Shown here: one piece after another, positions 321 to 52,538 of the stretch
How the letters are laid out: each line of letters opens with the position of its first letter
Numbering within the stretch: position 1 is the stretch's first letter
Assembly (NCBI GenBank): GCA_964016885.1
Contig: OZ024742.1
Location: 127,472,001-127,536,000 of the forward strand
Source of the DNA: Eledone cirrhosa
Lineage: Eukaryota
Direction of reading: 5' to 3'
DNA: 64,000 bases
Translations under genes and position numbers: made by a program
The notes under the pieces: generated by a model
Told to the model about the DNA's origin: nothing
What the model saw: the letters and a program-made list of their open reading frames with translations, nothing else
Database searches by the model: none

Positions 321-1381
321 TGCTAGAGAACGGGTTGCATGTGGTGGGTTGTGATACAGCCACCAGATATGATGGTTAGTTGCGATATAAGTGGGCAGCT
401 GCCAGACCCTGGACTAACAGCAGTAAACTACTAGGGGAGATTAAGCAATGGGTGACACCTATAGTTCCCAAGAATGACCTGGTGATGTAGTTATGATGAG
501 GTAAGTAAAGGCCACCTCTAAAAAAGCCTAGTCATTGCGGTTTTGAGAAAGTTCCAGATTGGTAACTAGTGAGAGGAACAAAAAAAGAACTATACCGCAT
601 TGTCCTTTGCATGGGCTAACAAGGGACATGTTCAGGCTTTAGGTAGAGGGGCCTGTTTAAAAAATATATTGCAGTCTCCATTTCATGTCACAAAAACTGG
701 TGATGGGCCTGCTACATTTCCTGGGAGGTGGGATGTACAAAGATTACATAACCCGAAAACCAAAAGAATGTTCAGAAGGGAGCAAACCTTCATACATAAG
801 GGTACAAAACAAAATTTGTAATCATAGCTATAATGAAAATCGGGGGATAGGAAGGTGTCCATTTTCTTGGGAAGAAAGTCATAAGGGGATATTCCACAAA
901 CATGTGTACTTAGACTTAGAAGCTCCTGCATTTTGAGACGCATGAGGCAGCCAAAGTGCTCCAATAGCAGCTATCAATACATCATTCCAACTTTTGTTGA
1001 TGGTTTCAAGTCTCTGTCAACTGTCTGTCACTAGTTCATCTTGGGATGACCTCTTCGCCTCTTTCCATGAGGGTACCAATACCCTTAATATAATTATCTA
1101 GTTGAATATTTAATGTGGTTGGACCCTATAATTACAGGTACAATCCATCTGACTGTTTTCCAAAGCGTTCAAATCTACCCAATTTCACTCAGAGGATTTA
1201 GGTCAACCTGAGGCCATAGTAATGACACTTGCTCAAGATGTCACTTTATAGGAAACCTCACAGAACCTCACAATTGTGAAGCAAACTTTTCAACGACCCA
1301 GCCATATCTCCATTCACTAATTGGCATTAACAGCAGAAGGGAAGTGAAATAGCTACAACAGTGAATCAAAACTGAGGTGAA

Positions 1382-1490
1382 GGCACATGGTTTAATGGTT
1401 AGGGTGTTTGGCTTATGATTATAAGGTTGTGGGTTCAATTCCTGGACAGGGTGGTGCACTGTGTTCTTGAGCAAGACACTTCAATTCATG
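1382..1490 (+). mobile_element. tRNA-derived SINE head
   Basis: A-box-like TGGTTTAATGG, B-box GGTTCAATTCC, then TTCTTGAGCAAGACACTT; related copy on the minus strand at 57640-57782. Confidence 0.65.
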
Positions 1491-1756
1491 TTACTTTTCA
1501 TGATATGACTGGGGCTCCTATCATTAAAACACTTGCAAAGCCTCATGTGAGATGCAGCCTTATAGAAGGCCAGCTAAACCAACATAGGTGTGAGCAGTAA
1601 CTTCTTATAAAACTAAGGAGGAGGCTCAGTCTATTGGTAGTTTATCTCATACTATCGCTATGTAAATGTAATAAGATATGAAACCATTTTTTTTTTTATT
1701 GGTTAGTCAGGAGGAAGGAGGGAGTCAACAGAGTGGACTCTACTAAAGGCACCTGA

Positions 1757-1889
1757 GAGCTATGTGGTGGTGCTAAACCCAGGAGCTAAGTGTTGGTGCT
1801 ACAGGAGCTATGTGGTGGTACTAAACCCAGGAGCTATGTGGTGGTGCTAAACCCAGGAGCTATGTGGTGGTGCTAAACCCAGGAGCTAT
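1757..1889. repeat. 26-bp minisatellite, about 5 copies
   Basis: Unit GAGCTATGTGGTGGTGCTAAACCCAG repeated head to tail with no spacers. Confidence 0.9.
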
Positions 1890-2397
1890 TAAATTTACCA
1901 CCCCAGTAGACTGAAGCAGGATTTGAACTCAGAACACAAAGAGATGGACTAAATACCGCAAAGCATCCTATCCAATGCTCTAACACTTCACCTTTTATTT
2001 ATCGACTCTGGGAGAATTAAAGGCAAAGTTGACTTCAATGAGATTTGAACTCAGAATGTAAAGAGCTAGAACAAATATTGAAAGGGATTCCATCCAATAT
2101 TCTCACACTTTTACCAATTTACCACCTATAATTGACTTGTAAAGTCTACAATTGGTTATACTATTATAACTCAGTTTTAGAACTACAATAATAATTTACT
2201 GCATAAATTATTGAAAAAATGACTTAGCATTAAGTTGTGGACTTCGAGTATAGAATAAACAGACTCAATTCTAGCTATGAGTGGGACAATTTTATTTTTT
2301 TTTTATTTTTGATAAGTTGGCACATACAACACACACTCACAAACACAAACACATGTAGACATTCTCTCTCTCATACACAGACTCACAAACAAATATA

Positions 2398-3234
2398 TCT
2401 ATATATATAAAACTGTGGTTGTCTGTCTGTCTATCGATTTTTGGCACACATCTCCTCTTAGAATCTCTCACGGAATTGCACCGAAATTGCTATACTTGTA
2501 CATTGAGCCCTAGCGAAGACATCGGAAAAAAAATATTTCAAATTGACCCACCCTATGTGACGAAATTGAATATAATGTATCGATTTTTGAGCATAAGTTA
2601 TCAGTTATTTCCCTTTGTTCTGTTTACATTGAGCGTCTTACGTAAAAAATTACGCTGGCTTTCTCAGCGTTTAAAATGACATTAACACAATACACGAACA
2701 GTTGTCGAGCCAGCAAAATATTGACCTGCAAAATTCATCAGTTCGAACACTAAGCTTCCGTTTTGCTTCATTTCCATTTAAAAGCATTTTAAAACAATAT
2801 TTTTACTTGAAAACAAGTCTATTTAAAGACTACGTAAAACAAGCAAATATTTCGTCATTAGGCGTGCAGACAGACAGTCGTGCAGACAGACAGTCGTGCA
2901 GAGAGGTGATATAGGCGTGCAGACAGACATAACTGATAATTTGGTTACGCTAATGTTTTTCTCTGCGTTGCAGTGTTTACATTTTCAATCTTTGTTAATA
3001 AATAACCAGTGCAGTTTCTATCCCCAGCATCCTCTTTTGTTATAACATTCGGGTTATCGTTATGTTTTCTTAACTTCATAAGGCATATTGTTGGTTGAGG
3101 GAATATTAATCAAAAACACCACATGCAAGTCTGCACAGTAGACACTACAGTTTTTAAGCCAAGAAAGAAACTTAACATTGTAACTTTAACACAGCTACTG
3201 AGCGACCCCGAGCAACGCCGGGCTTTACTGCTAG
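2398..3234 (+). mobile_element. Non-autonomous Helitron
   Basis: Starts A|TCTATATATATAAAA, ends with hairpin CCCGAGCAACGCCGGG then CTAG|T; inserted between A and T, no TSD. Confidence 0.85.
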
Positions 3235-3819
3235 TCTTTCAATAAATCCGGGCACTATTAGCCACAATCAAGTGCATTTTAGTCATTTTTATTTTTTCAT
3301 ATCTTTTCAAAACAATATACTCTTGTAAGCAAGTACAACTAAACTAAGACTATACTATTAGCTGGCTATGAAAAGATGCGTGTGTTTTTTTAATTTTTTT
3401 TTTTTATTTATTTGTTCCATTCACATGTCATTTCATGAAAGGGTACATTATTTATTATTTTTTATCTGAACAGTCATTTTTCCAATAACATGTAAAGTGA
3501 ATAACTGAGCTATTTTATCTTCGAAAATTGTTTGTGGAACTAGTAACTAGCAATAATATCTATTGATTCTTTCCAAACCTTTTTGTTAACTGTTATTTAA
3601 ACCCCATAAGCTAGATAGATTTATTTGCTTTTTACTACAACCATGCCACTAAACCAACCCAGTGGTCACACCCCATCAGTGGCAAGAAAGAAATCGTAAC
3701 AGGAGGTCAGTACAGGAATTTTTCAATAAATAGAAAGTCTTCAAACCACATATAACCCTTTTTTGATGCCCCTACTCATGAAAACTCCTTTTCATCTATG
3801 ATACTGTTCCTTTTGAAAA

Positions 3820-4005
3820 TAATAATTGTTTCTACTTTAGGCACAAGGCCAGCAATTACCCAGTGCATTACTGGTACTTTATTTTATCGACCCCGTAAGG
3901 ATGAAAGGCAAAGTAAACCTCGGCGGGATTTGAACTCAGACCGTAAAAGGGACGTAACTATGCTGGAAAGCATGGCGTCCGACTCTCTACCGATACTGCC
4001 AAACC
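3820..4005 (-). mobile_element. tRNA-derived SINE (core GCCTTTCATCCTTACGGGGTCGATAAAATAAAGTACC)
   Basis: Near-identical copies at about 21629-21760, 43636-43760, 43900-44033, 45385-45482, 51353-51532 and 55690-55875; B-box GTTCAAATCC. Confidence 0.85.
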
Positions 4006-4014
4006 TTTTGAAAA

Positions 4015-4153
4015 TAATAATAATAATGAAATATTGTGTACAGTGCTCAGGTGCACTACAACTCATCAAAAAGTGTATGTATAGTACGTCAGGAAAATGA
4101 ACAGTGCATGAGTCATGATATACACATGTGTGCATGTGTATGGAAGGGGTACA
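4015..4153 (-). mobile_element. CR1-like LINE 3' UTR with (ATT)n tail
   Basis: Matches the 3' UTR attached to the CR1 coding end at 60620-61075. Confidence 0.7.
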
Positions 4154-4429
4154 ACTTTAATCATCCTGTAAGAATTTAACAGAAAACATCTAAAAAAAAA
4201 AACCAGGTTTGTTAATTAAAATGTTTATAGTATCTTTATTGGTGGACAGATTGTTGTGAAAGTTTGTATTTTTTTTTATGCTTACGTATAAACAAAGTTT
4301 TATAACACACCAAAATATATGGCCAGAGAGATAAAAAAGTAAACAAAAACAAAAGCGACCATCAATTCACCACCAACCGGAAAAGGAGATCGTAAAAGAG
4401 TAAATAAAAGAAAAAGAGAGGTTATATGT

Positions 4430-5033
4430 CTTAATCCGTATGGTGAGCAAATGGGGTCCCATGTGCTGGCCTCCCCACAGCCCTGATGGACAGAATGGAG
4501 AATGCGTTCTCCCAAAGGATGGTAAGGGGGGTGTGCTGCAAGAGCCATTCCAACTCATGAGGCTCGCACTTGCGGTTGGCTAGCTCAGTGCCTATGGTGG
4601 TGAATAGCAAGGTAGCCCTAGGGCCAAGAATACCAGAAGTCTCCACTGCCAAGGGCACGGCCGCGAACTTGTCGGAGAGCGACCGGTACTTGGAGAGTTT
4701 GCCCTCCTCAGCCCAACGTGCAGCAGGACCTGGGTTAGTCGCAGACTGCACCAGGTTGCGGCTGGAGAAAATGTCACTGCAAGTGGCATCCCAGAGGAGG
4801 GGTTTGCCACCGCAGAACGGGAAGATGGTCATACCGTCTGGCTTTTTGCCGTCCCCTCGGTCAAGCCATGCTTTATGACCTCATTGAGGGCATCATAGCA
4901 TCGAAGGGGGCTGGCACTGTGGCGACAGGAAAGCAGGTAGAGGCCCAAAGAATCCACAGTGGATCCACAGCGACATTTATGTGGCTCGCAGATCCGGAGT
5001 CCAAGCTTCAAGGAAACGCTGATGCGCAGGCTA
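4430..5033 (-). mobile_element. CRE-like non-LTR retrotransposon 3' fragment (zinc knuckle plus restriction-like endonuclease)
   Basis: Peptides CRCGSTVDSLG, WDATC, EEGKLSKYR, PLAVETSG; homologous to 35700-36320. Confidence 0.85.
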
Positions 5034-5899
5034 TAGAGTAAAGACTTTAATTTTTAATGTGAGGCAGTCATAGTACAGTTTTATATTTTGCAAGCATGTC
5101 TTGTTAATGTGGTTTCATAATGTATCGGATGTTATGAGTTAATAGTATTTTATTTAAATTTAGCCCTTTCATAACCATTTTTTAAATGAAATATACTGTA
5201 TGTAATTAACGAGGAGTTTGGAAGGATTTTCTAAAATTATGAATTATTTTCATTATTAAGATGGTAGTTGTAACATAAGTTATCTTTTGAGGATGATGAA
5301 TGGGAAGTTTGAGATAATAAGGGTCAGAATCAGGTTTCCTTTCTCAACCTACTCCTGCTTATGGAAGTAAATCTATTCCACATGCCACTATCATAAATTA
5401 AACTTAAGTTAGCTAGTTGATGTTTCTAAAGAAATTCAAATCTTTTCCTCTTTATCTAACTTACCCTCCGCCTAACAAGATGGAGAAGACATTGCGGTGG
5501 TGAGGGTGATGTACTAGAATAGCCACTCCACCTGGTGGTCCCAGCCTGCAGGAAGGTGATGGGAAGGGAGACAACCACTCCACCTCATGGATCTTGCGCC
5601 TGCAGGCAGCCAACTCCCCTCCGATAGCAGTGAGTAAGGGTGTGATCCAGGGGCCAAGAATGCCGGAAATAGTTTTGGGGTGGGTTTGGCATGAAAAGGG
5701 TTACTTCTCTTGATATCAACCCACCTGAATCTGTTCTTGGTTACTTATTTTAAAGGATATACTTTAAATTTAGCTCTATAATGATTGTGTATTTAATGAA
5801 ATACATTCTATTTCCATTAATTAATGAAGAATTTTGAGGGATTTACTAAAATTATTAATTATGTCATAACTAATAATTTTAGTAAACCCCTCAAAATTC

Positions 5900-6220
5900 A
5901 TGGATGAACTGAGAGGAACAATAAGTATAAAAAGAATCAAATATAGTGAGCAAGAGAGAAGACTGCACTGGTATGGACATGTGATGTATATAGATAATGA
6001 TTGTTGGGTGAAGAAGTGTCAGGAGTTCCCAGCAGAGGAAAGCCAAGAAAGACTTGGGCAGAAGTGATGAGAGTTGATTTCAAAATGCTGAACCTGATAA
6101 AGAAGATAGTTAAGGAATGCAGTAAGTGGAGGGAAGCTGTGCTTGAAAAGATCCATCAAATCCATGCAAGCATGGAAAAGTAGACATAAAAGGATGATAA
6201 TAATGATGATTATGATGATG
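5900..6220 (+). mobile_element. RTE LINE (family A) 3' end with (GAT)n tail
   Basis: RRLHWYGHV and RGKPRKTW motifs followed by ATGATGATG tail. Confidence 0.8.
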
Positions 6221-6439
6221 ATACATACACATCTCATAGATTACTGGATTACTTTCATCTCAGGATTAAGTAGATCATTAATGCAACTCAATATGAAGAA
6301 ATTAATGTTGTTGCTTCTCTTTATTCAACTTTTTTACACAAATAACACAGGACCGAGTCCTCTGGTGCTACAGCGTATGACAAAAGACCCGTGTTGACCA
6401 CTTGACCCCGGAAGGCTCATAGGTGGACCACCCAACCTC

Positions 6440-6945
6440 ACACTGCAAACACAATCGATGGCTGTGATTTTTCTGTGAACAGGGTATGGTTTGGCCAACT
6501 GGCCTGCCCCCCCCCCCCTCATAATAGTGCCAAACACTTCTATGCGGTTATGGCTCCCAAACTGTGGTTCCATTGTGAGAAGGGTTCAGTGCAGCCAACT
6601 GGCCTGTCCCTCCTCATAGCGGTGTCATCCATTTCTACACTGCAAATGTGGTTGCGGCTCCCAAACCATGGTTCTGCTGAGAAATGTCTGGTGTGGCCAA
6701 CTAACCAGTCCCTCCTCATAGCAGTGCCATCCAATCCACACTGTAAATATGGTTGCGGGTCCCAAACTACGGTTCCGCTGTGAGAAGAGTTTGGTACAAC
6801 TAACTGGCCTGACCCTCCTCATAGTGGTGCTTTCCAATTCGACACTGTAAACACTGTCGAGGCTCCCAAACTGTGGTTCCACTGTGAGGAGGGTTCTGCT
6901 CAGCCAGTTCCACTCTGCAAATGTGCTTGTGGCACCCAAACTAAA
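6440..6945. repeat. Diverged tandem repeat, about 103-bp unit, 4-5 copies
   Basis: GGCTCCCAAAC-like anchor recurs near 6552, 6656, 6757 and 6861; CCCTCCTCATAG recurs at the same period. Confidence 0.8.
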
Positions 6946-8390: not shown

Positions 8391-8574
8391 TGGGAGTAGG
8401 TGGATGGAGTAGGGGTAGTGGGTTGGGGTATATATTTGGTTAGGAGCTGCCTTATAAATATAATACACAAAAATATACAATCAAAGCAAAATAAAAAAAA
8501 CATCTATTCAACACTAAGTGCATGAAGGGTCACACACTACAAAGGGTCATCAGAACCTCCCACTAATAAATATG

Positions 8575-8950
8575 CTGTGGTAAACCCCTCATCTAAGATG
8601 CCACATGCATCAACACATTCTTCAGCAGCAACCTGGTGCAGTCTGCGACTAACCCAGGCTCTGCTGCACTTCTGGTCGAGGAGGGTAAACTCTCCAAATA
8701 TCGATCGTTCTCCAACAGGTTTGCTGTCAAGCCCATGGCAGTGGAGACTTCTGGTGTCCTTGGCCCTAGGGCCACCTCCCTGCTCACCACCATTGGCACA
8801 GAGTTGGCTACCCACAGGTGTAAGCCTCGCAAGCTGGAATGGCTCTTCCAGCGTGTCTCCCCCACCATCCTCCGAGGAATCACCTTCTCCATTCTATCTG
8901 CCGGGGTCACAGGGTGGCCATCGTGTGGGCCACCATTTGCTCATAATAGT
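8575..8950 (+). mobile_element. CRE-like retrotransposon 3' fragment
   Basis: QSATNPGSAALLVEEGKLSKYR...AVETSGVLGP; homologous to 35975-36320. Confidence 0.85.
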
Positions 8951-20812: not shown

Positions 20813-20886
20813 TCCCATGTGGTCTAGTGGTTAGGATTCCTTGCTTTCACCCAGGCGGCGCCTATGTTCGATTCCCGGCATGGGAA
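20813..20886 (+). pseudogene. tRNA-Glu(TTC) pseudogene
   Basis: Copy of 33190-33261 with an anticodon-stem mismatch and disrupted T stem (GGCGCCTATGTTCG versus GGCCCGGGTTCG); only TTT downstream. Confidence 0.85.
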
Positions 20887-21350
20887 CAGCATATTTATAT
20901 ATATATATATGTATATAGGATTGGGGCTAGGATTAGATTTGCTGTATACATAAGGGTGGAGCAACTCTTGTTAATTCTCTCCTTCACGTGTAATGAATCG
21001 GGTGAATTCTATGATATTTTCGTGTTCATATTTCGAGATGTAAAAGTAATGATATCCTCTACAAGAAAGACGAAGTGTACAGCACAATGTAGAGGAGAAC
21101 CAAGAGAGGTAAATACAGGAATAGCTTGGATAATCGAGGTAATACAATATGACATTGCTATGACAATCGAGGTAATATAATATCACATTGCACCCCATGC
21201 AACAAATCACTGCATGTCGTGGTGTGGTCCTTATTCGGGTGGAAACAGTATATATGGATAGCACCGATTCACTCAATCGATTACCTACACCTTATAAGTT
21301 TGCTTGTCCGGATCTGACAGCGGAGACACAACGTTAACACATACGTGACA

Positions 21351-33189: not shown

Positions 33190-33261
33190 TCCCATGTGGT
33201 CTAGTGGTTAGGATTCCTGGCTTTCACCCAGGCGGCCCGGGTTCGATTCCCGGCATGGGAA
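33190..33261 (+). tRNA. trnE-TTC: tRNA-Glu (anticodon TTC)
   Basis: 72-nt cloverleaf TCCCATG...CATGGGA-A, anticodon arm CCTGG CTTTCAC CCAGG, intact A and B boxes. Confidence 0.96.
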
Positions 33262-33268
33262 CGGCATA

Positions 33269-33439: not shown

Positions 33440-36326
33440 TCATATCTAATGTAGGTGAGCTATGAGGCCCTCTTATCAGCACTTTCCCTTCCACCCACAC
33501 GCGGTTGTGCCTAGCACCTAGGCTGGTGACAACCAGCCGCTCGGTGCCCCAGTCCCCGGACCCACACCCCATCCTCCATCCCCACCAGTCGACGCCTGCA
33601 GCACTTGCAGCACCACGAACAGAGAGAAGAGGGGCCGGAACTGTGTTGGCTTGACATGTCGAGCCTCCAGTGCCCTCGCAGCGTGGAGATGCAGAAACTG
33701 TCTCTTCCCCTCGTCTGCCCAGCTACGGCCGTCTGGCACACCACCAGATGAGACAGTGAGCTTGCCTGACGCCCAAGCCTTGCTGGTCAACATCGCTCGG
33801 CTCAGGCGGCTCCGAAAGATCCCACTCAGGATCCCGAGAGCGGCCTGGGTGCCGGAGCCGATGCCCTCGCTTCCTCGATTGAGAGCGCCCTGGGCTCCAA
33901 TCGAGCCAGCGACTAGGAGCGACTCTTCTATTTCGCCCCACTCGCCCTCGGCCTTCCCAGCTCTGGCACTGACCGTGGTGGCCAGACGACAGCAGCTTTT
34001 GTCAAGGTCAATGTATCGTCCTTTGGGCAAGCGCCAATTCCAAGCGTGCCTAGGGACACTACACGCCCCACCCTCGGGGACCCCCAATCCTCCACACCTG
34101 AGGCCAGCGCCAAGCGTTTGCATGACCGCGTAAATGCCAAATTAATCATAGGTGATGTCTAGGCCGCAGTCAGAGTGGTTGCCTCACAGGACACTGTCCT
34201 CCAACCCACCGAGGAGGTCCTCGCTGCCCTGCGACTCAAGCACCCTGAGCCACCCGCTGACCTCAGACCAATGCCACCACCCATTCCCCACTTGCTTCTT
34301 CTGGCTTCCCAGCTAGCAGCAGCGGAGGTGCTGATGGTCTCCGACCAAGCCACCTCAAGGAGTTGCTATCACCCCTCTCCGCTGAGGCTGGGCGCCGCCT
34401 TCTGAGTGCAATGGTGGCACTCACCAATAGGCTTATCCATAGGCTGCCAAGGTGGTTAGCAGGTCCATAACACCCGAACTGGGTGAGAAGTTCAGTCCGG
34501 TGCAACTGGGTGTCGGCGTGTCCGGTGGCTGTGAGGAGGTCGCACATGCAACCAGGCAGTTTTCAACAGCTGCTCACCGGAACCGGCATCCAGGGACTCC
34601 ATGCACCGCACTGTCAAGCTTGACATGAGGAATGCCTTTAACTACTGACGCCGGGACCATCTGCTCGATGCCTGCCTCAGCCGAGCCCCCTCTGCCTACC
34701 CGCTGGCCTACCTGTCGTATGGAGCCCCGAGCATGCTCTTTGCTACTGATACGGTCATACCTTCGACCACTGGGGTCCAACAGGGCGACCCTTTGGGCCC
34801 CCTCCTGTTTTGCCCTTGGTATAGACCACATCGCCCGGAGTATTACGGCCCCTCTCAACGTTTGGTATCTGGATGATGCTACGTTGGGCGGGCCCGTACA
34901 GACTGTCAGCCATGACCTACAATCGGTGGCTCCTGCCCTGGCGGGAATCGGCCTCCAGGTCAACTCAGAGGTGGTGAATGTCAGCCACGATGCTGAGAGC
35001 TTTGCAGCCTCCGTCACGGACATGCGGTCCATTCTCCACCAGGTACCGGTGACCCCTAAAGAGGATGTTCTCAACCTCGGGTCACCGGTACACCCGCCGG
35101 CCATCCACTCCAGGCTTCAACAACTCCAGACCCTCACGAGCCGACTGGGCTTGATCGACGGTCACCCAGCTCTCTTTCTGTTGAGGAACTGCTTCACCAT
35201 GCCGAAGCTCCTCTCTACCCTTCGCACCGCTCCGTGATACACCCACGTATCTCTCCTCGTTGACCTCAATACTCTGTATCCGAGCAGCAGCCGAGGAGAT
35301 ATGCAACGTCAGGTTTGACGACATTGGATGGCAACAGGCCACTTTACCAGTCCCCGATCTCACTGGCTTTGCCGGCGTTTCTTTCGTCGGTAACCTCGTG
35401 CTGCGTCCTCGTCAGCAGGGTTCTCCAAAACACAATAGAACCCTCTGTGTTCAGGGAACGTGAGGCCGCCTGTGAGACCGGCTGGGACTCAGCCCAGTAG
35501 ACGTCCCTCCTCATTCTCCCCCTGCTGACGTCAAGTCCCCCCCCCCAAGCATAGGGATGCCATCCAGTGCACCCTGGCTTCAGACAGGCTCACGCGCCAG
35601 CTCGACCAGCACCGCCTTGCCTGTTTTCGTGCGGCCTCCAAACCCGACAGTGATGCCTGGCTCCATGCCCTGCCCTCCTTCTCCATTGCCACGCAGCTAG
35701 ACAACAATAGCCTGCGCATCGGTATTTCCTTGAGGCTCGGCCTCCGGATCTGTGAGCCACACCAATGTCGCTGTGGATCCACTGTGGACCCTTTCGGCCT
35801 CCACCCGCTTTCCTGTCGCCACAGTGCCAGCCGCCTTCCACGCCATGCTGCCCTCAACGAGCTCATAAAGCATGGCTTGGATGCTGCAGGCTTCCCTTCC
35901 CAGCTCGAGCCGGTGGGGCTGGACCGAGGAGACGGCAAAAGGGCAGATGGCATGACCATCTTCCCATTCCGCGGTGGCAAACCCCTCGTCTAGGATGCCA
36001 CTTGCAACGACACATTCTCCAGCCGCAACCTGGTGTAGTCTGCGACTAACCCAGGTTCTGCTGCACGCCGGGCTGAGGAGGCCAAGCTCTTCAAATACCG
36101 GTCGCTCTCCGACAGGTTTGCGGTTGTACCCTTGGCAGTTGAGACTTCTGGTGTCCTCGGCCCTAGGGCTCCCTCCCCTCTCACCACCATAGGCGCTGAG
36201 CTGGCCAGCCGCAGGTGTGAACCCCGCGAGTTGGAGTGGCTTTCCCAGCGCGTTTACCTTGCCGCCCTCCGGGGAAACGCCTTCTCTATTCTCTCCGCCG
36301 GGGCTGTGGAGAAGCCACCACTATGA
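33440..36326 (+). mobile_element. Long, degenerate CRE-like non-LTR retrotransposon
   Basis: GC-rich block with IPLRIPRAA, GVQQGDPLGPLLF, WYLDD, CRCG...HPLSC, RHAALN and DGKRADG motifs; many frameshifts. Confidence 0.88.
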
Positions 36327-36438
36327 TTGACTGACTTGTCATTTTATCAGTCAACCATTCACCACAACTTGGACAGCTGAAGAATACTTATGTTTGTGTG
36401 AATCGTAAACTAGAGTATTGTCTTTCTCTCTTTGTGTC

Positions 36439-38856
36439 TGTAGCAAGCTACTTTCCTCTGGCGCATTGATACCCTTTCCATGCGTTGTTTGGCTGAGTTC
36501 AGCCAATCGCTAGCAGCGTAGGGAAATGTACCTCAACTTCCGCTTAGAGGGAGAAATTCGCGCTTCTTTTCGATAAACTCTCTCTCTTGCAGCTCGGCAC
36601 GTTAAGGTAAAAACCTCTTGAATTCGTTCCTCAAGCATAAACAATATGTAACAACAAAACATCACTACGGACCTGGCTAACGCCTCAGCCAGTTGACCGT
36701 ACCTTCTCAAACCTTAATTTTGTTTGTTCATTTCTTTTGGCACGCCATCCAACCAAGCTCTCCTCATCTTTATTAAATACAAACTTCATTGGTGACCCCG
36801 ACGCGAGCCACCGGACTGGTTTCTGTCACTGCTGCCAAAATGGCTTCAACATTAGGAGGCAGCCTAGAGAAAAAAAGTTGTTTGATCATGGCGCTGTCGG
36901 CTGGTGCGTCTTCCGCGAGCTCTCTCGTTATCCGTGGGAGCTGAGTAGGTCTGCAGTCGCCTAGATGCACGTCGTTCACGAGAGTACGAAACTTCCTACC
37001 TGCGGAGACAGAAGTGCGGTTAAAAATTCCCTTTTCTTTTTTTTTACACTATTATACGTAGCTGCCGGAGACGGGTCGATAATTCAGTTATTGACCGTTG
37101 ATGTTAAGGAAGCAGCAATGGCACTTGGCAAAGGATGGAGCTGTCTAGAGTCGGAAGATATATTACGTGCTAGGAAAAACGATTCCATCTGTGCAAGCCA
37201 GATCCGCACATCACCGCCAAACGCCGGTAGTGAATTGCTTGCCATTGCCGATGGTGATATAAGGACTGCTTCTCACGACTGAAAGAAACAGGAGATAGAC
37301 GTTCGTAAACTTCACCGCAAACAATAACTGGATTATTCCTCTTGTATAAAAATGACACATGGCAGTGACATAAAAAAAAAACTATCTAAATTGGCGACCC
37401 CGTCGCGAGAACATTTTCGAACTAAATATTCCTCTAAAAAAAAATAAGAAGTAGTATTTTAAGAAAGAAAATAACACGCAAGCTTTCTTGTATTGTATTG
37501 TATTGTATTGTATCAAAACTCCATGTAAAAATGTTCTTGATAACATGACATCACGTTGTTTGCCTTCAATGAACCTGCCTAAGAAAACATTCTTTGAGGA
37601 AAAATTAGCTGTAATTGAAAAATTTATAGCGCGAGAAAATTTTTTTTAACATGGCTTCCACTGACAGGAACAACAACAACAACAGCAGCAGCAGCGACAA
37701 CATTGGTTAACCACTAACCATAAACACGGGAAAGATGCTTTCAAAATAACAACTTCGTCACATCAGCAGTGTAATCGTCAACAATGTGACAGCTTTACAG
37801 CCTTACCGACGCAACCCACTACACTTTCGAATTACGGGATTACAGCTTCAACTGCGACCTACCAACAGATTCAACTTTTTGCTTTCTTTTCAAAGCAACT
37901 TTAGCCATTTTTTCTGGCTGCCAAGCATTTTCGGCAATTCACTGGGAGGCCGACAATTTCTCGCCTACCCATCAACTCCTTGCCAGCACCTGCGAATATT
38001 GACTCACATCTTATGGCCGCATAACAGCCATCATAGAGTCGTTGGATCTTTCTTCGCCGGAATTAGCAATCGGTAAATGCAGATACCTGCCCGTACACAG
38101 CTACTGATAAACTACCATAACAACTTCATCCACACAGCTCTGGTACAACATTTACCATAACAGCTACACAGCTCTGGTAAAACAATTACCATAACAACTA
38201 ACATTTAATGCAAGAACAGCAAATTTTCGCCCATGTTAGACTTTATCCGTTTTCTGTTAGACCCCGGGTGGTCACGTATAAATAGCAAAACAGCTAGTCA
38301 TTTGACACAGCAGCTTAACAAGTCCCTTAGCGCCTCACTTACAATTTTTTTTCTTGCATGAATTCTTTTGTTTAATTTTTTCATTGATGTGCTCTCTTTC
38401 AGCGTTTTCCTGCTAGTAATCAATGCGAATTCAATCTTATTTATCATCCTTCCGGACTAAATGGGGGGTATCGTAGCAAGCTACTTTCCTTTGGCGCATT
38501 GATACCCTTTCCGTGCGTTATTTGGTTGAGTTCAGCCAATCGCTAGCAGCGTAGAGAAATGTACCTCAACTTCCGTCCAGAGGGAGATATTTCCGCTTCT
38601 TTTCGATAAACTCTCTCTCTTGCAGCTCTTGCACCGTTAAGGTAAACACCTCTTGAATACGTTCCTCAAGCATAAACAATATGTAATAACAAAACATCAC
38701 TACGGGCCTGGCTAACGCCTCAGCCAGTTGACCGTACCTCCTCAAACCTTAATTTTGTTTGTTCATTTCTTTTGGCATGCCAGCCCAGCTAACGTAGCTC
38801 TTCTCGCAATCTTTGTTAATAAATTATATTAAAACTTATAAAGTCTTATGATGTTA
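36439..38856 (+). mobile_element. Non-autonomous Gypsy-type LTR element 1
   Basis: LTRs 36439-36788 (TG...CA) and 38472 to about 38856; tRNA-Trp PBS TGGTGACCCCGACGCGA at 36790; PPT ATGGGGGGTA at 38461. The 3' end abuts a Helitron and no TSD was confirmed. Confidence 0.85.
36807..37245 (-). pseudogene. gag: Gypsy gag N-terminal fragment (DUF7041-like), antisense to its host LTR element
   Basis: MASNSLPAFGGDVRIWLAQMESFFLARNI ... LGDCRPTQL ... IKQLFFSRLPPNVEAILA, with frameshifts. Confidence 0.8.
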
Positions 38857-39684
<828 letters not shown>

Positions 39685-40520: not shown

Positions 40521-40539
40521 TATACTAAAATGGTGAACA

Positions 40540-42639
40540 TATAGCGAGATTACTGGCTGTATGAATGTAACAAAACGTGACATTGTTTGTGTATATAATA
40601 TTTAATTAACGGTAGATAGAATACTTGACATGTCAAAGATAGATGTTAGAATGAAACAAAGTTAGTAGTTACCGTTTTGATTGCCAGGCAAACGCGGCTG
40701 GCAGAGGGCGCCTGGCTAAGGCCAGGCGCCTGTTGGCCAAATTAATGGCAGAGCCAAATGAGAAGACTCTTGACCTGGTGCCGAAAAGGCAAAGAGAGGA
40801 AGGAAGCTTAAAGTTGTTAGTTTTATAGGGCTCTGACCGGAAGTTGCAGAAAGGGTTCCACCTCCCGTCTAGATCCTAATCAAAACAAGGGAGACAACCG
40901 CTACATAACCTCCCGCCAGAATTTTAGTGTATAAAAATCGAAATGAAAATATGTAGCAAGTTGGCGAGAATGTTGTAACAGGCATGAAAATTACGACAAA
41001 AGAATGTTTGGAAAAATCAATGATAGATATCAAGGTAGCCAACCGCTCTTGGCCAGAGAACGACTGGACATCCATCTATCCATCACCCAAAGATACAATG
41101 TAATAAAGTAAAAGTAATAGAAGAGCTCAAAGTTCAAAATATAGTTCACAGGTGTGCAATCACATGACAGCAGGAAAGAAAGTGTGTTCCAGAGAATGAA
41201 TGCAGGTGGTTTCTGTTCTGTGGTATATCGTGAAATTTCCAACCTCCGAATGGATTTTCTCACAGGAAGAGTGCTGCAAAAATAAATTCTCTGGCTTTGG
41301 TGAAGCTGTGTTGATGTATTGCTGTTGCTGTTATATTGCTGTTGCTGCTGCTGTTGTCTCGCTGAGTGAGCGTATTCGGTGTTTAAATTCACAGTAAAAA
41401 AATTTTTTTTTTTAGAAAAAAATGAGTTGCGCAAAGTGCTAGAAATAGCAGCCGAAGTTGATGGTCGATGTTGAGAATGCGTTGACCTGGAAGGGTCAAG
41501 AGGCCAGCGACCAGAGAAATAAGCATTCTTAATAAATGCGCGGTTATCAACGGTAAATTTACATTGTAAATTTATAAACCGGCAAATAGAAGAATATAGC
41601 TTAAGGCTGAAGAATCCCTGGTGATAAATGGCGTGCGGCTGTCTGTGAGTAGAGACATCTCAGTGAATCGAGAATTTATGCTGCCTACACGTGCCAATAC
41701 AAGGTTGAAAAAAAAAAATTTCTAACGCGCGAGAAAATGATAGTGCAATTTTGAAAGTGACAATGATGAAAAAGAAAGGCTTCAATCAGCATAATTATAG
41801 GTGTGAACTTTGGAAAAAAACAAAAAACTTGAACGATGAAGAAAACGAAGAACAAAAGGCAATGGTTCATCGAAAATAAATGTTCCTGTTGAAATGTTTT
41901 TTAAAGAATATCAAATTTCTTTTTTTTTTTTTGTGTTTTGAAAGAGTTCGTTGTAAGAAACGAGAAACATATATATATATCGTGAAATGTTTTTTTTGTT
42001 TTGAAAGTGTTCGTTGTAAGAAACGAGAAACATATATATATATATTGGTGAAATGCGACAGTTAATTGATGCGTGAGAGAAAAAGTATGTCTGTGCGAAT
42101 TCCACATGTGCGTGTGTGCGTGTCCTTGAGTATTTTCATAGTTTGTCGCTAAATTTGCTGTGTATTCGTAATGTTACTCACAAAACCAGATGTGCTATTT
42201 TTTTCTTTTTTTGGGGGGGTGACCACTTATAGCGATGAACGGCTGCGTGTTCGTATCACGTCAGGGTCACCAATATAGCGAGGATACTGGGTGTATGAAT
42301 GTAACAAAACGAGACAATGTTTGTGTATATAATATTTAATTAACGGTAGATAGAATACTTGACATGTCAAAGATAGATGTTAGAATGAAACAAAGTTAGT
42401 AGTTACCGTTTTGATTGCCAGGCAAACGCGGCTGGCAGAGGGCGCCTGGCTAAGGCCAGGCGCCTGTTGGCCAAATTAATGGCAGAGCCAAATGAGAAGA
42501 CTCTTGACCTGGTGCCGAAAAGGCAAAGAGAGGAAGGAAGCTTAAAGTTGTTAGTTTTATAGGGCTCTGACCGGAAGTTGCAGAAAGGGTTCCACCTCCC
42601 GTCTAGATCCTAATCAAAACAAGGGAGACAACCGCTACA
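40540..42639 (-). mobile_element. Non-autonomous Gypsy-type LTR element 2
   Basis: 366-bp LTRs at 40540-40905 and 42274-42639, 4-bp TSD AACA, PPT GGCGGGAGG, tRNA-Trp PBS at 42272 running leftward; no internal protein recognised. Confidence 0.95.
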
Positions 42640-44699: not shown

Positions 44700-45230
44700 T
44701 ATTATGAGCAAATGGTGTCCCACGTGCTGGCTGCCCCACAGCCCCCGGCGGGAAGAATACCCGGAGGATGATGAGGGATATGCGCTGGAGGAGCCATTCC
44801 ATCTCGCGAGGCTCACACCTGCGGCTGGCCAGCTCAGCGCCTATGGTGGTGAGTAGGGAGGTAGCCAAGGACACCAGAAGTCTCCACTGCCAAGGGCACG
44901 ACCGTAAACCTGTCGGAGAGCGACCGGTACTTGGAGAGTTTGTCCTCCTCAGCCCGAAGTGAAGCAGAACCTTGGTTAGTCGCAGACTGCACCAGGTTGC
45001 GGCTGGAGAAAGTGTTGCTGTAAGTGGCATCCCGGACGAGGAGTTTGCCTTTTGCCGTCCCGTCGGTCCATCCCCACCGGCTCGAGCTGGGAGAGGATGG
45101 GAGCCTGTAGCATCCAAGCCATGCTTTATGACCTCGTTGAGGGCAGCATGGCGTGGAAGGTGGTCGGCACTGTAGCGACAGGAAAGCGGGTGGAGGCCGA
45201 AAGGGTCAACAGTGGATCCACAGCGACATT
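44700..45230 (-). mobile_element. CRE-like retrotransposon 3' fragment
   Basis: Reverse complement matches 35765-36320 with small deletions. Confidence 0.85.
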
Positions 45231-45627
45231 TGCGTGGTTAAAACAGCATTTCAAAATCTATAAAAAAGGCCTTTCGAAATTCTGAAATCTGGTACATAAA
45301 TAAAAGTTCATAACATATTTTGTTGTTCTTTGTAATTATATTTTCATTTTTTTTTAATTTCCAGAGAGTGAAACGAGCACAAAAATAATTATTTCTACTT
45401 TTGGCACAAGGCCAGCAATTATCTCAGTGCATTACTGGTACTTTATTTTATCGACCCCATAATGATGAAAGGCAAAGTTACCAAAAATAATGTCAGCAGA
45501 TTACTTTCCTTATTGAATACACACTACTTTTATTAATTTGCTCGAGTATTCTGCTACAGAACCCAGTTTATTTGCTTTCTATGTTGCACTTCGCGATTTT
45601 CGATGTAAGATATTTAAAATTATGTAA

Positions 45628-46479: not shown

Positions 46480-49439
46480 TCTATATATCTAAAACAGAGA
46501 ATGTCTGTCTATCTGTCTCCCTAAAACTCGAGAACCACCCAACCTATTTTTTTTCAAACTTTACACATATAATACTTATGGTCCTGTCAGTGTTTTGAGC
46601 AAAACATATTTCAAATTTTCAATGCCCCACAGACGGCATTAGGCGCCAGTTAGCGATCTCTCTCTCTCTCTCTTTCTTAGTCTGTCTTTTTAGATAGATA
46701 CATAGCTATAACGCCGCGTCCTTATAATATCTGTCTGTATGTCTGGCTGTCTGCATTACGACATTATGCCAAATATTGTTCTCATTGCTGACGTATTATG
46801 TTCGCTATTTCCCGTTCATTGCCAGGGAATGTCTTCACGAACCAAAGTATCGCCTTCCTGTTTTCCTTCGGTTGCAACGTTTTTCGAAATATTTACTTGT
46901 GCGTTCACAGATTGATTTTTTTAGTTTCAGAAGATCCCGTTAAGGGTGAAAGCAGCGATTATTTGCTTAAACTTTAATCTCTAGCAAGAGTTACCTCCCT
47001 TGTTATGACGATCACATCACCAGTAGCGCTCTCTAGACAGGAAGTAGCTGGAGTTACTTCCCGTTGAGGTGGCAGAACCTTCTTTGTCACTTCCGTCCAG
47101 GGACCCTATAAAGGAGAGAGCTCCAAGCTATCTCCCTCTCTTTTAACCTGCCTGGCCCTTCGGCCAGGCGCATTGTGCCAGAGGGTATACTCTCTGGCAA
47201 CCTGAACATGGTAATGTAAAGACCTCTTGGTCTAATGCGCGCTGACTACAAAACGGTAAACAAATAACTTTAATTCATTCTTTCATCTCTCTTGGTATGT
47301 CAACTATTCTGCTCTACATAGCTCAACCTTGTTAAATAAACATTGTACATACAACCGAGAGTCTTGTTATATTCATACAACCCAGTGTCCTGTTATAATT
47401 GGTGACCCCGAGAAAAAAATAATAGGATTTGGTGTTGTGTGGATATGAAAAAAAAAGAAAATTAATTAGCAGTATTTCAAAAAGAAAAAATTCCTCTATC
47501 AACATTCCACATGGATTTTTCTACAACATTTCACATGGATTTTGTCTACAACGAAAAATATAAGTAATCTTTTCCTCAGCAGCAAACAAACAAGAAAAAA
47601 TTTTGCTTTTCACCTCACGTGTTTACATCGTTTAAATGTGTTTCAATCACTGGATATATCCTTCGTCCCTCGCGCAATAGAAATATTTTTTTTCAACTTG
47701 ACTTTAACCTTGTTTCGGCACGTGTGGGAGCACACATCTCGACTCACTGAGTTAACACACGCCATAGATAATGTTTCTTGCCAAGGATTCTCCAGCCTTA
47801 AGCTATATTCTCCTATTTGCCGGTTTAAAAATTTACCACGTAAATTTGCCGTTGAAAACTGCGCATTTATTCAGAATGCTTATTTCTTTGGTCGCTGGCC
47901 TCTTGGCCCTTCCAGGTCAACGCGTTCTAAACATCGACCATCAACTTTGGCTGTTATTTCTAGCACTTTGCGCAACTCATTTTTTCTGGGAAACTTTTTA
48001 CTGTGATTTGAAACAACTTTGAAAGAGTTATCTCACTCCGCGAGACAACAACAACACAGCTTCATCTTTGCTTTATCAACAACCAAAACCAGCAGAACAA
48101 GACAGAGAATTTATTTTTGCAGCACTCTTTCTGTGAGAAAATCCCAATTTCACGTTGTACCACAGTCTAGAAACCACCTGCATATATTCTCTGGAGGACA
48201 CATTTTCTTTCCTACTGTCACCTGTGAACTTTATTTTGAACTTTGTTTATAACTATATTCGAGCACGTTTCTTTGCTCCTTTGACCTCTTCTTTTGATTA
48301 CATTGTATCTTTGTGTGATGGATAGATGTCCAGTCGTTCTCTGGCCAAGAGCGGTTGGCTACCTTGATATCTATCATTGATTTTTGCATGCTTATATTTT
48401 GCTGTTTTGCTTTTATTGCAAACATTATTTTGTTGTAATTTTCATGCCTGGACTTTGGTGTTACATGCTCGCCATCTTATTTCATACATGGTTGATTCGA
48501 TTTTTTTGTTTTACAAATCTGGTGGGAAGTAATGTAGCAAGAGTTGCCTCCCTTGTTATAACGATCACATCACCAGTAGCGCTCTCTAGACAGGAAGTAG
48601 CTGGAGTTACTTCCCGTTGAGGTGACAGAACCTTCTTTGTCACTTCCATCCAGGGACCCTATAAAGGAGAGAGCTCCAAGCTATCTCCCTCTCTTTTAAC
48701 CTGCCTGGCCCTTCGGCCAGGCGCGTTCTGCCAGAGGGTATACTCTCTGGCAACCTGAACATGGTAATGTAAAGACCTCTTGATCTAATGCGCCCTGACT
48801 TCAAAACGGTAAACAAATAACTTTAATTCATTATTTCATCTCTCTTGGCATGTCAACTATTCTGCTCTACATAGTTCAACCTTGTTAAATAAACATTGTA
48901 CATACAACCGAGTGTCTTGTTATATTCAAACAACCCAGTGTCGCTGTTATAAATCTGTTATTTTAATATATATATATATAATTATATATTCGTATACAGA
49001 TATTTTTGCATACACAAAAATAAAATATAAACAAACGGATTTATTTCACGAAAGCACAGATGGCTTATCGTCATTGTTACTGCCGATATGCCATCCAAAA
49101 AGTCCCACTACTTTTGTCACAAGGCCAGCAATTACGTAGTCAACGGTTCGCAAATCACATGCATCACTGACGAGTTTACTCCTTACTCTACCAGTTAGTC
49201 TTAGTGTACTTCATCCTGCTTTTAGGTCATGCCTCGAAGGAAGAGATACTCCATTGGCCGAAATACTGCGAAAGCGGCAAGAAAAAGAACAAGGCGGGCA
49301 AACGAATCGTCAGTGGATTCTGCTATTCGACGGTCGCAAGGCCGAGGTATTCCGTACTTCTCTGTATTGTTTCAGAAAGGAGGAATAAACATGCCAATCT
49401 ATGTTTAGAATCCAGAGCAACCCCGGGTCATTCTGATAG
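46480..49439 (+). mobile_element. Non-autonomous Helitron split by LTR element 3
   Basis: A|TCTATATATCTAAAA head; the halves rejoin as in 39351-39400; decayed hairpin and ATAG|T end. Confidence 0.85.
46980..48951 (+). mobile_element. Non-autonomous Gypsy-type LTR element 3
   Basis: LTRs 46980-47397 and 48533-48951, 4-bp TSD AATC, PBS TGGTGACCCCGA at 47400, PPT GGTGGGAAG; interior homologous to element 2. Confidence 0.95.
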
Positions 49440-51756: not shown

Positions 51757-52538
51757 GGCGATATCCAATTTTAGCTGTCTAAATGCCGCTTACTTGCTGC
51801 AGTTGCTTCTTACTTCAATGTATGAGGCTATTCCAACAAATTTGCATTCCCCTTTTTTTTAGCCGTGAAAAGAAATATAGATTTATTTATTTTTTTTTTT
51901 TGCGATTTATTTGCCACTGGGGCATAGATTTCTTTATTTGCACCTTTTTTGTTTGTTAGTTTTTTTGCGATTTATTAGCCTTTTGGGGTCACACACACCC
52001 CCGTAGAAAGTGTGCGACCTTTCTGCCAGGGAGTACAGAGAGAGGGGGGTGCTCCCTTCTCTTACCTGTACAAGCCGATATAGAGAGATGGCCCACTTAC
52101 ACGGGCCATTATTGCTACTTTCACCCGAAAAAGGCACTCAGTCCCAGCCAATTCCATGAAAGATGGGTGAAAGTAGCAATAATGGCCCGTGTAAGTGGGC
52201 CATCTCTCTATATCGGCTTGTACAGGTAAGAGAAGAAGGGAGCACCCCCCTCTCTCTGTGCTCCCTGGCAGAAAGGTCGCACACTTTCTACGGGGGCGTG
52301 TGTGACCCCAAAAGGCTAATAAATCGCAAAAAAACAAACAAACAAAAAAGGGGCAAATAAAGAAATCTATGCCCCAGTGGCAAATAAATCGCAAAAAAAT
52401 AAAAATAAATAAATCTATATTTCTTTTAACGGCTAAAAAAAGGAGGAATGTAAATTTGTTGGAATAGCCTCATACATTGAAGTAAGCAACAACTGCAGCA
52501 AGTAAGCGGCATTTAGACAGCTAAAATTGGATATCGCC
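51757..52538. mobile_element. Foldback MITE, Merlin-like termini
   Basis: Inverted arms 51757-52126 and 52165-52538, 38-bp spacer, termini GGCGA...TCGCC, 8-bp TSD AGGCAAAG. Confidence 0.88.

Follow-up and report, generated by a model that had tools for sequence, protein, structure and literature searches.

Structure of the element and its neighbours

The window analysed here is a single 64-kb stretch of DNA from Eledone cirrhosa. Near its middle lies a non-coding long terminal repeat (LTR) element with two copies of its primer-binding site (PBS), and between these copies stands an inverted piece of a gag gene. Two other non-coding LTR elements, referred to below as elements B and C, lie within the same window. 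The features are as follows.

36435..36438, plus strand: left flank, TGTC
36439-38840, plus strand: non-coding LTR element of 2.4 kb with LTR pair, PBS and polypurine tract
36439..36788, plus strand: 5' LTR, 350 nt, TGT at the start and TCA at the end (BLAST and alignment)
36790..36807, plus strand: PBS1, tRNA-Trp type by motif, one letter past the 5' LTR
36808-37391, inverted: insert between the PBS copies, 584 nt
36808..37245, minus strand: 5' part of gag, DUF7041 or CsRn1-type, about 143 codons, ATG at 37245
37246..37391, minus strand: 146 nt, non-coding, ahead of the gag ATG, likely a donor leader
37392..37409, plus strand: PBS2, likely the original site, differing at letters 4 and 12
37410..38458, plus strand: non-coding internal region, its 5' part low-copy, 37780-38380 common to a high-copy family
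38459..38468, plus strand: polypurine tract, from sequence
38472..38840, plus strand: 3' LTR, about 369 nt, CGT at the start and ATA at the end
40539-42639, minus strand: element B, non-coding LTR element, tRNA-Trp-type PBS, perfect 4-bp duplication TGTT
46982-48952, plus strand: element C, non-coding LTR element, tRNA-Trp-type PBS, perfect 4-bp duplication AATC

The element at 36439-38840 carries the marks of a non-autonomous LTR retrotransposon, namely two LTRs, a PBS, a polypurine tract and no intact coding frame, and no stop-free frame of 120 codons is found inside it. Its LTRs are 90.5% alike by BLAST. In the LTR core, 19 of 309 aligned letters differ between the two copies (6.1%), whereas the last 41 nt of the 5' LTR show 7 mismatches in 40 aligned letters together with 17 gap columns. 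This excess of mismatches at the tip (Fisher P 0.019) agrees with the first-pass annotation, which had described the 5' LTR as departing from the 3' LTR at its PBS-proximal end. Compared with the 3' LTR tip, which resembles the LTR of element C, the 5' tip is a shorter version that has diverged further. Measured against the TGT...ATA/AAA type, each LTR has one intact end, the 5' copy reading TGT...TCA and the 3' copy CGT...ATA. At the position where elements B and C have TATAAA, both LTRs of this element lack it.

Comparison of the flanks, including a shift of one letter, revealed no perfect 4-bp target-site duplication around the element. The right flank is AAGT directly past the LTR end, or AGTC one letter further, the latter matching the left flank at three of four letters. 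By comparison, elements B and C have LTR pairs that are 98.6% (5 of 367 letters differ) and 96.4% alike (14 of 418 differ), respectively. The internal regions of B and C are 73% alike over 932 nt, while their LTRs have no BLAST match with each other. From PBS2 to the 3' LTR the element measures 1080 nt, and the comparable lengths are 1136 nt in C and 1367 nt in B.

Just upstream of the 5' LTR, at about 33500-36321, lies a GC-rich broken coding element with relatives at 4463-5034, 8574-8906 and 44724-45237. By its motifs it looks like a non-LTR retrotransposon; the three frames tested gave no Pfam match. The window also contains two tRNA-Glu(TTC) genes (20813-20887 and 33190-33262) and a fold-back element of about 780 nt (51757-52538), the arms of which are 95-97% complementary and enclose a spacer of 173 nt.

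Two primer-binding sites and an inverted gag piece

The first-pass annotation had reported an 18-nt direct repeat of the PBS at 36790 and 37392 with two mismatches, and both the positions and the mismatches were confirmed. PBS1 and PBS2 agree at 16 of 18 letters, and none of 100 dinucleotide-shuffled versions of the window contained two such matches. The likeness ends exactly past letter 18, with 2 of the following 20 letters in agreement, and extends weakly upstream over an A-rich stretch (10 of 15 letters, shuffle P about 0.03). A search of viral contigs with the PBS pattern returned two matches, both in GC-rich sequence without tRNA genes, and these were taken as chance.

The first 14 letters of PBS1 are identical to those of the PBS of L001, a gag-bearing relative. 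Over the full site, agreement with L001 is 17 of 18 letters for element B, 16 of 18 for PBS1 and 14 of 18 for PBS2. Letters 13-18 of PBS1, in contrast, match PBS2 and differ from the tail common to element B and L001. Since PBS tails vary by family among the related loci compared, the common tail of PBS1 and PBS2 suggests that PBS1 may have been copied from an element rather than from a tRNA. For PBS1 to be newly copied from tRNA, the host would need a tRNA-Trp variant that matches it.

Both changes in PBS2 fall in the priming part of the site, where PBS1 is intact. In addition, the first 100 nt 3' of PBS2 match those 3' of the PBS of element C (1 of 500 shuffles as good), whereas the 100 nt after PBS1, used as a control, do not stand out against element C (125 of 500). 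The same 100 nt after PBS2 gave no signal against element B (51 of 500). The match to element C consists of a 36-nt A-rich stretch, and the internal region as a whole is not significant (z 1.8). The more decayed state of PBS2, together with this weak match of the downstream sequence, lends weak to moderate support to its being the older site, which it probably is. The first-pass annotation had allowed that PBS2 might lie away from the ancestral PBS position of the family; in these comparisons it behaves like the old site.

The changes at letters 4 and 12 of PBS2 both complete a 5-bp hairpin, a feature noticed after the fact. Its predicted energy is -6.7 kcal/mol (z -2.3, 4 of 200 shuffles), against -0.7 for PBS1. 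Folding gave no clear difference in accessibility between the two sites (unpaired 0.38 versus 0.34). Fold-back self-priming from the PBS2 hairpin was considered as a source of the insert and rejected, since the insert shows no likeness to the element's own leader.

Between the two sites, the first-pass annotation had placed about 580 bp containing the 5' part of a Gypsy gag in reverse orientation. The spacer is indeed of that size (584 nt) and the gag piece is on the minus strand; however, 146 nt of the spacer are a non-coding stretch, probably a leader, and the gag piece is broken. It contains one stop (37084-37086) and one frameshift in a T run near 37036, and it ends before the zinc knuckle. 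The Pfam family DUF7041 was matched on the minus strand from 37245 to 36809 with an E-value of 3.3e-6 and 27.9 bits, just under the cut-off of 28. Word-index protein searches with the gag piece returned no match, whereas a full HMMER search with the second frame piece matched 323 library proteins at E<=0.001. In a tblastn comparison with the best gag-sized match (P0002), residues 1-70 were 47% and residues 74-143 were 64% identical, and the ATG at 37245 aligned with the first residue of both P0002 and P0008.

Domain scans of 13 gag relatives found DUF7041 in nine and reverse transcriptase, RNase H or integrase domains in six; another of them, P0006, is an ankyrin protein with neither DUF7041 nor polymerase or integrase domains. 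Named sources were available for 2 of 10 close gag matches, Octopus bimaculoides and Sepia pharaonis, which by themselves point to a probable cephalopod host. The knuckle CX2HX9CX3C is present in 50 of 150 relatives, and the CCHC form in none of the 150. This knuckle, a tRNA-Trp PBS, TGT...ATA/AAA ends and 4-bp target duplications have been given as marks of the CsRn1 clade (PMC2582038), and PBS1 fits the tRNA-Trp PBS motif printed in the same paper. The PBS type, LTR ends and gag relatives thus point to membership of both the element and the gag donor in the CsRn1 (tRNA-Trp) group of Ty3/Gypsy. With host element and donor in one group, the insert would be kin rather than foreign. CsRn1, PwRn1 and AgCR share with the element the type of PBS, the LTR size and, as far as the one intact end of each LTR goes, the TGT...ATA type of LTR ends, and the clade shares its knuckle with the relatives of the gag piece. 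Unlike the clade as described in PMC2582038, the present element has no pol, no sense gag, two PBS copies, an inverted gag piece and an imperfect target duplication.

The 146-nt stretch at 37246-37391 was interpreted by comparison with gag-family loci from metagenomes. Fifteen such loci were collected, 12 of them with upstream DNA, and in 9 of these 12 a same-strand PBS of tRNA-Trp type stands 65-114 nt before the place equivalent to Met1; near-copies are included, the nine PBS-bearing loci amounting to about six independent elements. By analogy with these loci, the stretch probably represents the leader of the donor, truncated close to the donor PBS. The minus strand of the insert itself contains no PBS, and the insert has no internal direct repeat of at least 8 nt and no repeat pair of its own. 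Its comparison with four LTRs of the window revealed no likeness (best z 2.2 of 8 comparisons), and an interpretation of the 146-nt stretch as an LTR remnant was set aside as unsupported on the same comparisons.

A further feature of the related loci is an 11-mer in gag that is complementary to the PBS with one or two mismatches. It occurs at residues 154-156 in P0002 numbering, where the codons are those for E-V-T, in 9 of the 15 loci (L001-L003, L005, L007-L010 and L013), which are related to one another and not independent. Its position is 11-13 codons past the break in the inverted gag, that is, near the break but not at it. The 11-mer may reflect chance in the codons or a long-range pairing of the RNA. 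For the proposed strand transfer discussed below it is no more than a lead.

Matches in public sequence data

Four public data sets were compared with positions 36300-38900 at 80% likeness. In one set of contigs (X1), depth adds up to 600-6600 across most of 37780-38380 and reaches thousands across much of the LTR, but is 34-285 from 36735 to 37778; these depths are not copy numbers. The same contrast, again one of depth and not of copy number, is found in contigs and reads alike, with the insert and the part after PBS2 shallow and the LTR and the 3' internal part deep. The stretch at 37780-38380, where read depth is far above that of the rest of the internal region, is non-coding, contains repeats of 34-40 nt and occurs in reads in many internal deletion forms. 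It probably forms the core common to a large non-autonomous family.

One contig spans the first joint from the LTR through PBS1 and enters gag for 70 letters; over 235 nt it has 6 differing letters and 13 gap letters. It may represent an allele or a sister copy. Another contig matches 328 nt of gag exactly, stop and frameshift included, which indicates that both of these defects are real. Five other gag pieces among the 12 listed of 1441 differ from the gag of the insert by 9-17%, and in other copies gag and the leader stretch are connected by three of the joints listed. None of the 12 pieces listed of 1441 spans the second joint (37391/37392). A joint skipping the insert does not appear among the 15 of 22 joints listed, a result that is uninformative. 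The 23-mer of the first joint was found in 0 of 17 related loci examined.

In reduced-representation reads from two individuals, 194 and 178 molecules, respectively, start at one site in LTR copies and read toward the LTR end. The places at which these reads start and end fit a digest with SphI and MluCI. A copy with both the digest site and the insert would yield a fragment of 287 nt, and the depth of plus-direction first mates at 36822-36908 is zero in both sets. This is a weak result, as the window's own 5' LTR lacks the digest site and the zero depth therefore limits only copies that keep it. A 151-nt record of a second organism (run X4) matches 37426-37576 exactly, at a depth of 3. The small share in organism B (four records) and a low-depth signal just past PBS2 in run X5, which had no assignable source, were left out of account.

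Origin of the arrangement and its parallels

The minus strand of the reverse-transcription intermediate ends at PBS letter 1. The joints of the insert fall at PBS letter 18 and PBS letter 1, that is, at the ends of such intermediates, and this speaks for an error of plus-strand transfer in reverse transcription. In HIV-1, plus-strand synthesis on the primer tRNA stops at a PBS length of 18 (PMC12657518). The element may thus be the scar of such a transfer onto a co-packaged gag RNA, an origin that we put forward tentatively, at a little under even odds. RNA of the non-coding element would have been packaged together with RNA of a gag-encoding relative. Plus-strand strong-stop DNA, consisting of the LTR and the 18-nt PBS, would then have jumped to an undegraded 5' part of the gag RNA at about codon 143; sense RNA copied as plus strand accounts for the antisense orientation of gag. 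Copying would have run back over the ATG and the leader and halted at the tRNA-occupied PBS of the donor, and it is this tRNA-bound border that we infer to be the third end. A further jump to the 3' end of the minus strand of the non-coding element, which ends at PBS letter 1, would have retained the old PBS. The product, with two LTRs from different parent molecules, would have integrated and later decayed.

Normal replication leaves both LTRs identical (PMC1950507), and the distinct 5' tip therefore fits an origin of the two LTRs in two parent molecules. Chimeras formed by template switching are documented in LTR elements (PMC5131818; PMC13317346). On the other hand, such a transfer needs three jumps within one cycle, there is no perfect 4-bp duplication, and the LTR core divergence of 6.1% stands against 1.4% and 3.4% in elements B and C. 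The first-pass annotation had proposed that faulty strand transfer added foreign cDNA next to the LTR. The joint positions fit this proposal; the insert, however, belongs to the same group, PBS1 is not evidently a tRNA copy, and the unequal LTRs and imperfect target duplication fit a rearrangement after insertion as well.

Such a rearrangement in the chromosome is a close rival that we consider a realistic possibility, if a somewhat less probable one. Either a template switch during repair or replication copied 584 nt from an ectopic gag with duplication of the PBS, or neighbouring or nested elements of the same group were fused by deletions using PBS homology. Outer LTRs 6% apart, the differing tip and the missing perfect target duplication all fit this explanation, and dissimilar outer LTRs that lack a target duplication have been described as marks of recombination between insertions of separate origin (PMC1950507). 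Three elements of this type lie within 13 kb, so that neighbours were at hand, and the family-specific tail common to PBS1 and PBS2 is what DNA-derived copies would have. A precedent exists in cqgypsy_1, with an insertion at the LTR-PBS border and a 26-nt duplication (PMC3286476). Rearrangement nevertheless requires that breaks hit PBS letter 18, PBS letter 1 and a place close to the PBS border of the donor, whether by chance or through homology, the insert is without an LTR remnant, and the flanks do match at three of four letters one letter on. Other LINE copies in the window were compared as a possible empty site, and their flanks gave no alignment.

Nesting is common in repeat-rich genomes, and the age of the locus allows for deletions. 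Yet an ordinary nested insertion of a reversed gag-bearing element, later trimmed, is very improbable here, as neither an LTR nor a PBS nor a short target duplication belongs to the insert and the flanking repeat is 18 nt long, compared with the 4 bp of the group. A nested gag with its own LTR and target duplication had been named as an alternative by the first-pass annotation, and no LTR, PBS or repeat pair of this kind was found. An assembly chimera might be suspected in a repeat-rich window in which none of the 12 pieces listed of 1441 spans the second joint. It is the least credible of these explanations, however, since a short-read contig crosses the first joint with 70 letters in gag and the 328-nt exact match reproduces the stop and the frameshift.

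The first-pass annotation had also suggested that LTR-driven transcription gives antisense gag RNA able to silence, or pair with, a helper element. From the anatomy, a transcript driven by the LTR would contain leader and gag as antisense. Extended to a subfamily, a non-autonomous lineage would have taken up its helper's leader and 5' gag in reverse through a plus-strand jump and gone on replicating with the new PBS as the old one decayed, and it would now make antisense RNA against the helper that it needs. We regard this as unlikely, and regard as equally unlikely the spread of a small insert-bearing subfamily whose LTR-driven RNA would pair with the helper leader and gag or supply piRNAs against them. 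Such a subfamily would agree with either origin of the insert. In favour of propagation are the variant contig over LTR, PBS1 and gag beside the exact 328-nt gag contig, the possible existence of a second version of the first joint, and the confinement of the PBS2 changes to the priming part while PBS1 is intact there. Molluscs have piRNAs against transposons (10.1101/250761), and an antisense piece, once captured, can silence the donor from which it came (PMC9674220). The variant contig may be an allele, however, and the gag relatives among those listed differ by 9-17%. The two individuals with 178-194 LTR-copy starts yielded no plus-direction first mate over 36822-36908, a weak point against propagation. 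In Ty1, antisense RNAs over the same region caused no trans inhibition and did not anneal to genomic RNA (PMC13709905). Further, unequal LTR tips are unexpected after another round of retrotransposition; given that normal replication yields identical LTRs, they suggest a first-generation product or a change in place rather than the offspring of a master, and argue that this copy was not re-copied as a unit. The element is most likely a decayed one-off without selected function, any antisense RNA being a by-product, and the proposal that the inverted gag is a silencing device against its relative is not supported on present evidence. If a propagating subfamily did exist, it would amount to a mobile and self-limiting piRNA source born of one reverse-transcription error, with the PBS duplication as a searchable footprint.

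Chimeric non-autonomous LTR elements and capture by template switching are known, and so are non-coding LTR families (PMC3286476); the arrangement described here is unusual in its details. Veju-L and BARE-2 (PMC13317346), insertions in Triticeae (PMC1950507) and LTR-mediated retrocopies (PMC5131818) similarly hold a piece of foreign RNA within an LTR element, attributed to jumps between co-packaged RNAs. The models described in these sources involve first-strand switching, matching outer LTRs and a target duplication, whereas in the present element the piece is inverted, a PBS duplication forms the boundary and the LTRs are unequal. In the way it would have formed the element resembles a template-switch chimera. 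The Sabot-Schulman type of such chimeras has near-identical outer LTRs and a target duplication; with 6.1% core divergence, a different tip and an imperfect duplication, the element is not of this type, though a plus-strand jump between parents would itself predict unequal LTRs. The element cqgypsy_1 of Culex likewise has an insertion where the 5' LTR meets the PBS, flanked by a short direct duplication, but there a tRNA dimer was inserted, 26 nt of LTR were duplicated and no gag is involved (PMC3286476). Defective HIV-1 proviruses that arise by aberrant second-strand transfer are also joined at the PBS or immediately beside it, with additional sequence following. In that case the addition comes from read-through into the tRNA and the remainder is lost, and the text consulted describes neither an inverted gag nor a second PBS (PMC12657518). 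Searches of open-access text yielded no account of an inverted gag leader from the same group with an exact PBS duplication at its borders, and PMC12471100 and PMC10294476 contribute nothing on this point.

A single decayed copy matters little, and its value lies in a footprint, an inverted insert with an exact PBS duplication, that can be searched for genome-wide. Should the pattern recur, it would show how LTR elements can acquire antisense sequence in a single step, and the seeding of antisense small RNAs against an element's own helper would become testable. The nearest parallels on the antisense side are the Pxyfem retrocopies, in which an antisense copy is also joined to LTR-element sequence and silences a host gene in a moth (PMC9674220). 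They differ in having a host-gene target and small-RNA evidence. Ty1 likewise has antisense RNA over the 5' region of gag, made in that case from Ty1 itself and described as without trans action (PMC13709905). The antisense frames reported in plant LTR elements are intact genes near the 3' LTR (PMC11963269).
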